Part shown: in pieces, positions 32,617 to 39,803 of the stretch
How the letters are laid out: the number at the start of each line of letters is the position of its first letter
Numbering within the stretch: position 1 is the stretch's first letter
Source of the DNA: Shigella phage ESh28
Reading direction: 5' to 3' (one strand)
DNA: 64,000 bases
Sequence record: ON528738
Translations under genes and position numbers: made by a program
The notes under the pieces: generated by a model
The model's database searches: none
Told to the model about the DNA's origin: nothing
What the model saw: the letters and a program-made list of their open reading frames with translations, nothing else

Positions 32617-33101
32617 TTTTAAAAACTCGCTGGTATGATTTAGATGATGGGGACGATGGCATTTCAGTTGATAGAGTTGACTGGAGCGGCTGTTCTGAAG
32701 ATACAAAGAAACGATTAATTAGGGAGTTTAGAATGGGATATCAAGCAGTTAAGCCATCTACTGTAACAGATGATAAATTCGTGTGTATTCATAATGGTCG
32801 TGCTAAGTTAACGAATGCTGAATGGTTCACAGATAAGATTATGATTCTGTGGTATATCATTAGTCTTCCTGTGTCATCATTCGTATTTTACTTTTTTATA
32901 AAAAATCCAATGGACAGAATAGGAGATTGGATTCTTTTAACCATACTTGTTAATATTTTTACAGCATCAATATTATCTGGGATATGGTACACGTTCATTG
33001 AAATGCCATGGCGGCTACGCAGACAACAAAAGATTTTTGATGAAAAGAAATATACTCAAAATTTAAATAACTTTATCACTGAATGCAGGAAATTAAAATG
33101 A
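32613..33101 (+). CDS. small membrane protein (C-terminal FITECRKLK motif)
   Basis: 162 aa, hydrophobic central helices; ATGA start/stop overlap with the previous gene. Confidence 0.6.
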   Translation: MILKTRWYDLDDGDDGISVDRVDWSGCSEDTKKRLIREFRMGYQAVKPSTVTDDKFVCIHNGRAKLTNAEWFTDKIMILWYIISLPVSSFVFYFFIKNPMDRIGDWILLTILVNIFTASILSGIWYTFIEMPWRLRRQQKIFDEKKYTQNLNNFITECRKLK

Positions 33102-33538
33102 AAACATTATCAGCTGGTATTATCTTCATGACAGAAGATAAAGATTTATTTATGGGTCGGGTTACTGGTTCTCGTAAGCCTGGAATGATGGCACATCGCT
33201 GGGATATTCCAAAGGGACGTGTAGAAAGTTCTGATTTGAATGCACTGGAAGCTGCAAAAAGAGAATGCTTAGAAGAGACCGGTTTTAGCAATTATAATCC
33301 AGACCTTCTAGAAGACCTAGGTGTATTTAAATATTCTAGTAATAAAGACTTACAGTTATTTTATTATACGATTCCAGTAGAGCATGAGATGTTCAGAAAT
33401 TGCTATTGTGAGTCTTATTTTGAAAATAAAGATGGCGTTATGATTCCAGAGATGGATGCTTTTGCTCTTATTCCTCGTACTCAGTGGCAATATGTGATGG
33501 GTCCTTCACTTTACCGAATAATGAACAACCTCTTTTAA
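33083..33538 (+). CDS. nudE: Nudix hydrolase NudE
   Basis: 151 aa; Nudix box GRVESSDLNALEAAKRECLEETGF; directly upstream of e as in T4 (an alternative start at 33098 has a better SD). Confidence 0.85.
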   Translation: MQEIKMKTLSAGIIFMTEDKDLFMGRVTGSRKPGMMAHRWDIPKGRVESSDLNALEAAKRECLEETGFSNYNPDLLEDLGVFKYSSNKDLQLFYYTIPVEHEMFRNCYCESYFENKDGVMIPEMDAFALIPRTQWQYVMGPSLYRIMNNLF

Positions 33539-34069
<531 letters not shown>

Positions 34070-37702: not shown

Positions 37703-38248
37703 ATGAGAAAAGCACTACTCGCTGGTCTATTGGCCATTTCAATGATGGCACATAGCTCCGAGCATACTTTCAGTAATGTCCAACTCGATAACATGCGTTA
37801 CGCGTATCAATTCGGGGAACAATTTTCTAAGGATGGAAAATATAAAACACACAAAAATATCCACAAGAGCGGATTAGGTCATATAATGGCTGCTATTTTA
37901 TGGCAAGAAAGCTCTGGCGGAGTTAATTTAAAATCTAAACCAAAGCATCACGCCTACGGAATGTTCCAAAATTATTTGCCTACTATGCGAGCAAGAGTTA
38001 AGGAACTTGGTTATAATATGACCGATGCTGAAATAAAAAGAATGTTGAATAAACGATCCAATTCAGCTTCCTGGGCGTACATTGAACTTTCTTATTGGTT
38101 AAATATACATAAGGGCGATATAAGAAAAGCAATATCCTCTTATAATTCGGGATGGAATGTTAAAGCTGGTTCTAAATATGCTTCTGAAGTCCTAGAAAAG
38201 GCTAATTACCTTAAAAATAATAAACTTTTGGAAATAGTAAATGACTAA
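37703..38248 (+). CDS. secreted lytic-transglycosylase-like protein
   Basis: 181 aa; N-terminal signal peptide (MRKALLAGLLAISMMAHS); SLT-like motifs WQESSGG, GMFQ, SYNSG. Confidence 0.6.
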   Translation: MRKALLAGLLAISMMAHSSEHTFSNVQLDNMRYAYQFGEQFSKDGKYKTHKNIHKSGLGHIMAAILWQESSGGVNLKSKPKHHAYGMFQNYLPTMRARVKELGYNMTDAEIKRMLNKRSNSASWAYIELSYWLNIHKGDIRKAISSYNSGWNVKAGSKYASEVLEKANYLKNNKLLEIVND

Positions 38249-38588
38249 AATTTTAGTTTTATGTATAGGATTAATTTCATTTTCTGCTTCTGCGTCAGCA
38301 GATACATCATATACTGAAATTAGAGAATATGTAAACCGCACTGCGGCAGATTATTGTGGGAAAAATAAAGCATGCCAAGCTGAATTTGCACAGAAATTAA
38401 TATATGCATATAAAGACGGAGAAAGAGATAAATCAAGCAGATACAAAAACGATACATTATTAAAACGATATGCTAAAAAGTGGAATACCTTAGAATGTTC
38501 AGTTGCGGAGGAGAAAGATAAAGCCGCTTGTCATTCAATGGTTGACCGTTTAGTAGATTCTTATAATCGAGGATTGAGTACTAGATGA
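38241..38588 (+). CDS. secreted Cys-containing small protein
   Basis: 115 aa; signal peptide MTKILVLCIGLISFSASASA; four Cys. Confidence 0.6.
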   Translation: MTKILVLCIGLISFSASASADTSYTEIREYVNRTAADYCGKNKACQAEFAQKLIYAYKDGERDKSSRYKNDTLLKRYAKKWNTLECSVAEEKDKAACHSMVDRLVDSYNRGLSTR

Positions 38589-39064
38589 TTGTAAAATATA
38601 TCAAGGGCGATATTGTCGCCCTATTTCTTCAAGGTAATATTATTGCGCACGGGTGCAATTGCTTCCACACAATGGGCTCTGGCGTAGCGGGTCAATTAGC
38701 AAGAGCCTATCCCAAAATTTTAGAAATAGATAAAACCACTACCGAGTACGGTTCTCGTGATAAATTAGGCGATATGTCTATTGTTTTTAAACATAGTCCT
38801 ACGGGATTTGGTATATGCTATAACCTGTATACACAATACGAACCGGGTCCTAATCTTGATTATGGTGCTTTAGTAAACTGCATGATAGAATTAAATCTAC
38901 AGGCAGAAACCCTTTTGTTTAAACCAGTAATTTACATTCCACGCATAGGTTGTGGTATTGCTGGCGGTGATTGGGATAAGGTTTCTAAATTAATCGACAT
39001 GTTTACTCCTGATATTGATTTGATAGTGGTGGATTATGAAAGTACATTACCCGCATCCGTTTGA
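38585..39064 (+). CDS. macro-domain-like protein (putative ADP-ribose binding/processing)
   Basis: 159 aa; GDIVAL...NIIAHGCNCFHTMGSGVAGQLA and PRIGCGIAGGDW resemble macro-domain glycine-rich ADP-ribose-binding loops. Confidence 0.5.
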   Translation: MIVKYIKGDIVALFLQGNIIAHGCNCFHTMGSGVAGQLARAYPKILEIDKTTTEYGSRDKLGDMSIVFKHSPTGFGICYNLYTQYEPGPNLDYGALVNCMIELNLQAETLLFKPVIYIPRIGCGIAGGDWDKVSKLIDMFTPDIDLIVVDYESTLPASV

Positions 39065-39248
39065 TCCTAAAAACAAAGCAGAAATTATTCGTCAATGGGA
39101 ACGCATTTGCCGTACTAAATGTCCAATTAATAGTCCACATGATGTAGATAAAGACTACATTGGAACATTCGTTGAATATACCTTTATTGATAAGAAAGGT
39201 CGTAAACAACATGTAGAAGAATATTGCTTAAAGGTTACATGGTTATGA
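39036..39248 (+). CDS. hypothetical protein
   Basis: 70-aa ORF overlapping the 3' end of the previous gene by 29 nt. Confidence 0.4.
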   Translation: MKVHYPHPFDPKNKAEIIRQWERICRTKCPINSPHDVDKDYIGTFVEYTFIDKKGRKQHVEEYCLKVTWL

Positions 39249-39451
39249 GCCAAACTAGTATTCTTAAAAATGCCCACTGTGAAAAGTGTAAGTGGCCGGT
39301 TGTTTTTGCTTTATGTAATGATGAAATGGCTTGTGATTTCGATTATTGGTGCTATTGTTCTAATAAAGGATGCATCAATCATAAAGGTGAAGGATTTTAT
39401 TCAGGATTTTATCCTTATCCTGATTTCGTTAAAGAAGGTAAACCAAAATGA
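39245..39451 (+). CDS. Cys-rich small protein (zinc-ribbon-like)
   Basis: 68 aa from ATG at 39245 (MSQTSILKNAHCEKCKWP...); CxxC...C...CxC...C pattern; ATGA overlap with the previous stop. Confidence 0.5.
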   Translation: MSQTSILKNAHCEKCKWPVVFALCNDEMACDFDYWCYCSNKGCINHKGEGFYSGFYPYPDFVKEGKPK

Positions 39452-39621
39452 ATAGTTTTGAGTTACAATACGAAGTGTTACGTGAGCTTGATAATTTAAT
39501 TGAACTCGCTGTTAATAAAGGTTTTGCCATTGGAATCGGTCAAAAAGATACTGGTCATTTAACTATGGAAATATTTAAGCAAAAGCGAATTATTTTAAAA
39601 CTCCTGGAAATTAATATATGA
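39448..39621 (+). CDS. hypothetical protein
   Basis: 57-aa ORF (MNSFELQYEVLRELDNL...) found by reading the frame; below the ORF-track length cutoff; coupled to both neighbours by overlapping stop/start. Confidence 0.4.
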   Translation: MNSFELQYEVLRELDNLIELAVNKGFAIGIGQKDTGHLTMEIFKQKRIILKLLEINI

Positions 39622-39803
39622 GTCTGAGTAAAGAACAAAAAGATAAATTGTTTGAGCTTATCCATGAACTTCTAGATGAGCATACAGAAACAAACACCTT
39701 TTATGATGAATACGGCCCGCTATCTCCCGAACAGCAGGAAGAATTTGTTGATCGGTTTGATAAGAAAGAAAATGAATTAATAGCTTATGTGAATACGCTT
39801 TAA
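39618..39803 (+). CDS. hypothetical protein
   Basis: 61-aa acidic ORF immediately upstream of tk. Confidence 0.5.
   Translation: MSLSKEQKDKLFELIHELLDEHTETNTFYDEYGPLSPEQQEEFVDRFDKKENELIAYVNTL

Follow-up and report, generated by a model that had tools for sequence, protein, structure and literature searches.

What does the small gene between vs and tk.3 encode in a T4-like phage, and by which chemistry would its product act? The window considered here, a stretch of 64,000 nucleotides (nt) from Shigella phage ESh28 (ON528738), is that of a T4-like phage, a Tequatrovirus, and at 38585..39064 (+) it holds an open reading frame (ORF) of the tk.4/adfM type, with an ATG start and a TGA end, for a stand-alone macrodomain protein of 159 amino acids (aa). 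A first-pass annotation of this DNA had described a 159-aa macrodomain-like product with two glycine-rich motifs, and both motifs are present, loop 1 at residues 18-39 (NIIAHGCNCFHTMGSGVAGQLA, 38636..38701 (+)) and loop 2, the diphosphate-binding glycine loop according to the alignments, at residues 119-130 (PRIGCGIAGGDW, 38939..38974 (+)). The proposed fold is confirmed as well. The Pfam Macro profile (PF01661) matches at 32 bits (gathering cutoff 22; E=1.3e-7) over profile positions 2-117 of 118, PHROG 335, which carries the label 'phosphatase', matches at E=1.2e-71, and the PDB matches by sequence are BT1257, yeast Poa1p, SCO6735, M. tuberculosis DarG and human TARG1. The AlphaFold2 model, which was built from a 73-sequence family alignment (A1), has a mean predicted local distance difference test score (pLDDT) of 93.9 and a predicted template modelling score (pTM) of 0.89. 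The fold search that the first-pass annotation had called for was run with Foldseek and gives TARG1 as the best match (E=1.6e-9), the other top matches being Poa1p, BT1257, the DarG proteins of T. aquaticus and M. tuberculosis, and SCO6735, with template modelling (TM) scores of 0.72-0.81 for the top matches and with Poa1p found at E=1.6e-9 by sequence and 1.7e-9 by fold. All of the top 50 PDB matches from Foldseek are macrodomains or designs based on a macrodomain. The assignment to the macrodomains, with their three-layer α/β/α architecture, is secure, neither profile nor structure having rejected it, and the conserved glycine loops indicate that the protein probably binds ADP-ribose.

The gene is the ortholog of T4 tk.4 (adfM), since it occupies the same position between vs and tk.3, its flanks are 94-100% identical to those of T4 and its product falls into one clade with T4 Tk.4. 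The T4 gene encodes 155 aa, likewise lies between vs and tk.3 and carries the RefSeq note 'contains A1pp phosphatase motif'; the two proteins align at E=1e-70. In the window, the gene stands in a cluster in the order regB-vs.1-vs-tk.4-tk.3-tk on a single strand, which agrees, by position only, with the assignment to the early region in the first-pass annotation. By megablast, 561 phage records contain a match to the 480-bp gene, in some of them under the label tk.4, and this tk.4 allele alone is present in 387 Escherichia-phage records. The orthologs of tk.4 were assigned to A1pp/macro in 2006 (PMC1524935). More recently, HIDEN-SEQ of a T4 transposon library on a host carrying DarTG2 gave tk.4 as the sole significant match, a clean tk.4 knockout made T4 sensitive to DarTG2, and the gene was named adfM, for anti-DarT factor Macrodomain (bioRxiv 10.1101/2025.11.20.689424). 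This genetic requirement for the T4 ortholog lends support to the counter-defence against DarT-type systems that the first-pass annotation had suggested, and it means that the gene and its anti-DarTG2 role are already known from the literature. What the present analysis adds is a Gln-type active site, a family common to the Adpp phosphatases and a gene-sized cassette swap.

The active site indicates how such a protein could work. Invariant in alignment A1 are H22, G23, N25, C26 and G33 of loop 1, A35, D49, N80, Y82 and Q84, and P119, G122, G124 and W130 of loop 2. In a second multiple alignment (A2), Gln84 (codon CAA, 38834..38836 (+)) falls in the column in which TARG1 (K84), both DarG proteins (K80) and the AdfM of phage PhiKZ have their catalytic Lys, and Asp125 of TARG1 is replaced by Ala126; SCO6735 and BT1257 have Gln in the same column as the window protein. 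We take the TARG1 sequence in this alignment to be the authentic one, its K84/D125 numbering agreeing with the residues named in PMC9411070. Gln84 is retained in 79 of 79 viral loci from IMG/VR. In a pairwise HMMER alignment with SCO6735, for which a chimeric probe was used (window residues 1-112 joined to SCO6735 residues 137-166) and only the N-terminal part was counted as evidence, H22, G23, N25 and Q84 correspond to H24, V25, N27 and Q85, where the recovered SCO6735 numbering matches the residues named in PMC9411070. The conserved macrodomain Asn25 (codon AAT, 38657..38659 (+)) is thus the equivalent of SCO6735 Asn27, and it aligns with N23 of PhiKZ AdfM; G23 stands at the position of V25, which has a backbone role, and G124 at that of G128. 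In SCO6735, the Q85A substitution abolished and the N27S substitution almost abolished cleavage of thymidine-linked ADP-ribosylated DNA (ADPr-DNA), and a water-mediated mechanism in which Gln85 positions the distal ribose was proposed (PMC9411070). Because Gln84 and Asn25 match SCO6735 Q85 and N27 and the catalytic Lys is replaced, the T-even protein is, judged from these alignments, of the SCO6735 type, with Gln84 held by Asn25, and not of the DarG type. With a Gln-type active site, the apt catalytically dead mutant of T4 AdfM would be Q84A or N25A and not a Lys mutant. In Shigella phage SHFML-26 (KX130862.1; locus L088, 20088-20480; also P0002), the product annotated in GenBank is only 130 aa long and starts 87 nt 3' of the true start; as this truncated form is without the active-site residues H22 and N25, the start call is doubtful, and the tk.4 start was probably mis-called.

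We regard it as likely that the window gene is a Dhakavirus-type tk.4/adfM allele, the macrodomain of which reverses DNA ADP-ribosylation by DarTG2 through SCO6735-type chemistry. In this scheme, a small stand-alone macrodomain would be made early in infection. The host toxin DarT2 puts ADP-ribose on thymidines of single-stranded phage DNA and thereby blocks replication; the macrodomain would bind this ADP-ribose and cut it off by hydrolysis at C1'' of its distal ribose, so that free ADP-ribose would be released, the phage DNA restored and replication protected. The chemistry would be lysine-independent, with Gln84, placed by Asn25, orienting the distal ribose for cleavage by an activated water, and would not follow the Lys-based route of DarG and TARG1. 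A Gln-type enzyme acting on ADPr-DNA is plausible because SCO6735 cleaves thymidine-linked ADPr-DNA and the Q84/N25 pair of the window protein aligns with its residues. A stand-alone phage macrodomain able to clear DarT2 marks is plausible because one is known from PhiKZ: gp104, also named AdfM, strips these marks off an oligonucleotide in vitro, and its activity is reduced when the conserved catalytic-site asparagine is mutated (N23A) (Cell Reports 2026, PMC13309987). DNA de-ADP-ribosylase activity would thus be a prediction for any T-even allele, and the DarTG2 phenotype of the T4 allele would be expected to extend to that of the window.

Several points weigh against this explanation. The window allele is only 58% identical to the T4 allele for which the phenotype was obtained, and the T4 AdfM preprint reports no enzyme assay, removal of ADP-ribose from DNA being said there to be what 'seems likely' (bioRxiv 10.1101/2025.11.20.689424). 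The validated ADP-ribose-1''-phosphate (ADPR-1''-P) phosphatase family Adpp belongs to the same phage family and shares its catalytic residues, and the placement of the T-even clade comes from a neighbour-joining tree without bootstrap support. No other loop in the family is as short as the T-even one after Gln84 (TQYEPGPN), which is without the DNA-binding lysines of SCO6735; in the window protein it is five residues shorter than in SCO6735 and contains no Lys, where SCO6735 has the DNA-contacting Lys89 and Lys94. Finally, the T-even proteins tend to be slightly acidic (median net charge of the clade -3), but so is PhiKZ AdfM. Net charge was considered as a discriminator between DNA and small-molecule substrates and was set aside, as PhiKZ AdfM, a validated DNA enzyme, is equally acidic.

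The relation to Adpp requires closer consideration. Adpp, reported in January 2026 from Vibrio phage Gary, is a Poa1p-like phage macrodomain inside NARP1 operons, which converts ADPR-1''-phosphate to ADP-ribose, whereby NARP1 overcomes aRES defence (bioRxiv 10.64898/2026.01.28.702374). By tblastn, 2,859 phage records contain homologs of the window protein, and some of these homologs adjoin genes labelled 'ribose-phosphate pyrophosphokinase'. Among these homologs, gp178 of Vibrio phage Wyman sits in an Adps-macro-Namat operon, and its motifs AHQCNCF, FNVYGQY and IGCGLAGGDW match the motifs of the window family. Homologs in or next to Adps/Namat were located in mutually unrelated phages, namely in Vibrio phage Wyman (L005, 2632-5638), in Vibrio phage K408 (L006, 1666-4619) and in Acinetobacter phage phi1_092033 (L007, 1-2974). 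The H/N/C/D/N/Y/Q/G/G/W set is kept by every family member in any context (79 IMG/VR loci plus references), and by this measure T-even Tk.4 and Adpp belong to one phage family with identical catalytic residues. The shared residues therefore cannot show whether a member acts as AdfM or as Adpp, so genome context is needed to distinguish the two, and annotation pipelines will keep 'phosphatase' for both. In the tree (88 sequences, moderate support), the T4-syntenic proteins, with the window protein and T4 Tk.4 among them, group into a single clade without NARP1-linked or cellular members; the sister group of the phage family consists of SCO6735 and BT1257, and the outgroup of DarG and PhiKZ AdfM. 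The NARP1-linked members are scattered and do not form a single clade, which suggests either repeated recruitment into NARP1 or a broadly dual-function family. Members of the T-even clade have a short loop after Gln84, TQ[YF]xPGPN; in the NARP1-linked proteins and in SCO6735 this loop is longer.

These observations bear directly on the possibility that the main job of the protein is that of Adpp and Poa1p, namely dephosphorylation of ADPR-1''-P (arising, for example, from RES-domain NADases, aRES) to ADP-ribose, which we consider quite unlikely. The 'phosphatase' label of PHROG 335 and the RefSeq note on T4 tk.4 are in line with it, as are the presence of Poa1p among the top sequence and fold matches with H-x-C-N-C in common, the dephosphorylation of ADPR-1P in vitro by the Adpp of a NARP1 operon, and the 35.6% identity of Wyman gp178, which stands in an Adpp context and has the same H/N/C/Q/G-loop residues. 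However, Adpp is useful only together with the other components of NARP1, Adps and Namat, and no homolog of either was found within the 64-kb window. Adps homologs do occur in 178 Escherichia-phage records, but those sampled are phages of 83-88 kb or 147 kb and are not T4-like; T-even coliphages evidently do without Adps. Moreover, the T4-syntenic proteins keep to a clade of their own, apart from the NARP1-linked members, and the sole known phenotype of T4 tk.4 is DarTG2 sensitivity. Since both reactions break the bond at C1'', one enzyme could do both, and T-even Tk.4 and Adpp might then constitute one Gln/Asn-type hydrolase family cleaving any C1'' attachment, a dual-function reading that strikes us as unlikely, though of greater weight than the phosphatase function by itself. 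If it were correct, one 18-kDa enzyme would strip DarT2 marks from DNA thymidine, dephosphorylate ADPR-1''-P and perhaps cleave other C1''-linked signals such as His-ADPR, and its tuning to particular substrates or DarT2 variants would come from the short PGP loop that follows Gln84 and from the swapping of gene-sized cassettes among T-even genera. Between the AdfM role and the Adpp role, the absence of NARP1 genes, the phylogeny, the synteny and the loop length favour the former.

Three further explanations depart from DNA repair or from DarT2 altogether. The protein might bind and block the DarT2 toxin stoichiometrically, as an antitoxin mimic, which we judge to be very unlikely. In its favour, catalytically dead SCO6735 Q85A, DarG K80A and TARG1 K84A inhibit DarT in vitro, SCO6735 most strongly (PMC9411070), AdfB of phage ICP1 acts via direct interaction, and whole-gene allele exchange among T-even phages would be sensible if the protein had to fit variable toxins. 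AdfB is not a macrodomain and was discarded as a precedent for the fold. Against it, the active site is invariant in more than 70 diverse homologs and the ratio of nonsynonymous to synonymous substitution rates (dN/dS) is low, a pattern more in keeping with a conserved enzyme than with a surface that follows a changing partner, and the 159-aa window protein consists of a macrodomain only, with no C-terminal DarT-binding domain such as that of DarG. A role as a regulatory eraser of the ADP-ribosylation or RNAylation made by the Alt, ModA and ModB of the phage itself, as the first-pass annotation had also proposed, is more improbable again. All that speaks for it is the co-occurrence of ADP-ribosyltransferases and a macrodomain in T4-type genomes; however, the residue targeted by Alt, ModA and ModB is arginine, and cleavage of arginine-linked ADP-ribose is not known for macrodomains of the TARG1/DarG class. 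The gene is also dispensable on a plain host and scores on a DarTG2 host only. In T4_7t1 (OL964745.1; locus L089, 431-806), a reduced-genome T4 mutant of 159.8 kb, tk.4 is split into two coding sequences annotated as 'macro domain-containing' and is apparently disrupted, which fits a gene that is dispensable on laboratory hosts. Sublines of T4 differ by S36G in Tk.4 (PMC8573959). The least probable of the explanations is that the protein breaks down or captures immune signals derived from ADP-ribose, for instance the gcADPR of Thoeris or His-ADPR. Macrodomains can bind His-ADPR, as does that of the host protein ThsA, and His-ADPR is linked at C1''; however, neither a genetic nor a biochemical link emerged, and of the anti-Thoeris proteins named in the papers examined, Tad3-7 bind the defence protein, others are sponge proteins and none is a macrodomain enzyme. 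The Thoeris connection raised in the first-pass annotation thus found no backing, a link to this protein having turned up neither in this analysis nor in the papers examined. The macrodomain encountered in following this lead is the host effector ThsA and not a phage enzyme, and the CmdTAC paper, also pursued as a lead, names macrodomains in its reference list only.

If the window gene is a Dhakavirus-type allele that acts against DarTG2, how does it come to stand in a T4 backbone? The neighbouring products are nearly those of T4 (Vs and Vs.1 100%, RegB 99.3%, Tk.3 94%, Tk 99% and RI 100% identical). At the DNA level, the identity to T4 is 100% up to 38622; from 38623 to about 39090 it is 33-80% to T4 and 80-100% to CLB_P2 and L008, and from about 39100 the sequence is T4-like again (93-100%). 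The sliding identity, which is 100% to T4 up to 38619, thus delimits an exchanged Dhakavirus-type cassette of about 470 bp at 38623..39090 (+), with an approximate right boundary, in a backbone identical to T4. CLB_P2 is a Dhakavirus, and its protein is 94.8% identical at the amino-acid level to the window protein; in loci L008-L011, the proteins are 90-93% identical to that of the window and the flanking genes are 44-72% identical to T4. The best reading of these profiles is that the cassette was exchanged between T-even genera, and the window protein would accordingly be chimeric, with residues 1-13 of the T4 type and the remainder of the Dhakavirus type. The allele is found, at a protein identity of at least 95%, in about 275 phage records. 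The DarTG2 phenotypes of the BASEL phages Paracelsus and WilhelmHis, which carry this allele, were sought, and the BASEL T-even phages have DarTG1 data only. The pairwise dN/dS between the alleles is 0.04-0.25, and the tk.4 alleles are under purifying selection, with every allele class kept functional; the alleles therefore differ as a result of an exchange between functional versions and not of gene-wide positive selection or decay. Positive selection as the source of the 58% identity is rejected by these values at the level of the whole gene, and cassette exchange explains it. The gene tk.4 behaves as an exchangeable cassette among T-even genera, in keeping with a pattern in which anti-defence genes travel separately from the backbone of the phage.

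The left end of the cassette coincides with the end of a palindrome, AGGGCGATATTGTCGCCCT, at 38604..38622 (+), which has a perfect 8-bp stem, covers codons 7-13 of tk.4, resembles a terminator hairpin and marks the putative left recombination junction. Diverged alleles, those of T4, of the Dhakavirus type and others, share the palindrome in their nucleotide sequence, and in locus L020 the pairing is maintained via two synonymous changes. As it is located exactly at the switch from T4-like to Dhakavirus-like sequence, it may serve to anchor recombination or be an element of the RNA. The hairpin was also evaluated as a structured RNA, for which its folding energy is not significant (z=-1.6), and a promoter scan gave fewer sigma-70-like sites than in shuffled sequences. 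Upstream, vs (38241..38588 (+)), the valyl-tRNA synthetase modifier, shares an ATGA with tk.4 at 38585..38588 (+), its ORF ending at 38588 and tk.4 starting at 38585, an overlap that suggests translational coupling of the two genes; the arrangement in T4 is identical. Downstream, the 3' end of tk.4 overlaps the start of tk.3 (39036..39248 (+)) by 29 nt at 39036..39064 (+), as opposed to 4 nt in T4, and the four extra C-terminal residues of the window protein (PASV, 156-159) have a pLDDT below 50 and are predicted to be disordered. The longer overlap appears to be a by-product of the right-hand junction of the cassette.

Beyond tk.3, two small ORFs stand in place of T4 tk.1: one at 39224-39451 encodes 75 aa rich in Cys (CEKCKW...CNDEMACDFDYWCYCSNKGCINH), and the other, at 39448-39621, encodes 57 aa; in a related phage the two bear the annotations RB32ORF111c and RB32ORF110c. 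They are followed by tk.2 (39618-39803), the product of which is 54% identical to T4 Tk.2. Because tk.1 is replaced and tk.2 is merely 54% identical, the whole tk-vs interval is, as seen in this comparison with T4, a variable region. Elsewhere in the window, a 151-aa Nudix hydrolase with the Nudix box GRVESSDLNALEAAKRECLEETGF is encoded at 33083-33538, directly upstream of lysozyme e (33575-34069), and by its position we take it to be T4 nudE/e.1. NudE hydrolyses ADP-ribose, the product of a de-ADP-ribosylating macrodomain.

Focusing on the known systems, the closest relative of the window protein is T4 Tk.4, with which it shares the vs/tk.3 locus, a near-identical length, the invariant residues including Asn25 and Gln84, and the clade; the difference lies in the overall sequence and in the glycine loop, which reads GAGIGKGNW in T4 and GCGIAGGDW in the window protein. 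Adpp has the H-x-C-N-C, N-x-Y-x-Q and G-loop residues in common with the window protein but differs in its setting, an Adps-Adpp-Namat operon instead of the vs-tk cluster, in an identity of about 29-36% and in the longer loop after Gln. Yeast Poa1p, a top fold match, shares the H-x-C-N-C motif and has Ser at the position of Gln84. The T4 AdfM preprint of November 2025 compares the protein with M. tuberculosis DarG and presents it as a DarG homolog (bioRxiv 10.1101/2025.11.20.689424), yet its active site is of the Gln type, as in SCO6735. The DarG proteins of T. aquaticus and M. tuberculosis resemble the window protein in the macro fold, the clade and the conserved Asn, and they act on the substrate proposed for it, whereas they possess the catalytic Lys (K80, in FPTK), a C-terminal domain that binds DarT and a darT gene alongside; no darT lies next to the window gene, the neighbours of which are vs and tk.3. 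The NCBIfam DarG model accordingly scores only 27.7 bits against a cutoff of 250 and is matched at model positions 2-142 of 338 only, and the PADLOC DarG model, matched at positions 3-144 of 329, scores 27.5 bits, both matches being confined to the macrodomain part of the models. A cellular homolog, P0094 from Pelagimonas, also stands alone with no DarT nearby and so gives no sign of an origin from a toxin-antitoxin system. In human TARG1 (OARD1), the catalytic dyad Lys84/Asp125 takes the place of Gln84/Ala126; TARG1, too, removes thymidine-linked ADP-ribose from DNA (PMC8501950).

PhiKZ gp104 is likewise a stand-alone phage macrodomain that counters DarTG2, and it shares the name AdfM, but it is DarG-type, matching M. 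tuberculosis DarG at E=9e-25 and carrying the Lys of FPTK where the window protein has Gln. Its similarity to the window protein is weak, with a BLASTP E value of 0.001 over 23 residues and an hhalign probability of 95.9%. On their different catalytic residues, the T4-type and PhiKZ proteins named AdfM are best described as independent recruitments and not as the same kind of enzyme. The chemistry of the T4-type protein is instead expected to resemble that of SCO6735 and BT1257, which, at about 27% identity and with a basic SCO6735 protein as compared with an acidic T-even one, have Gln for the catalytic Lys, the Asn partner and the G-C-G-x-A-G-G-x-W loop in common with it, stand alone without an adjacent DarT and belong to the TARG1/ALC1-like class.

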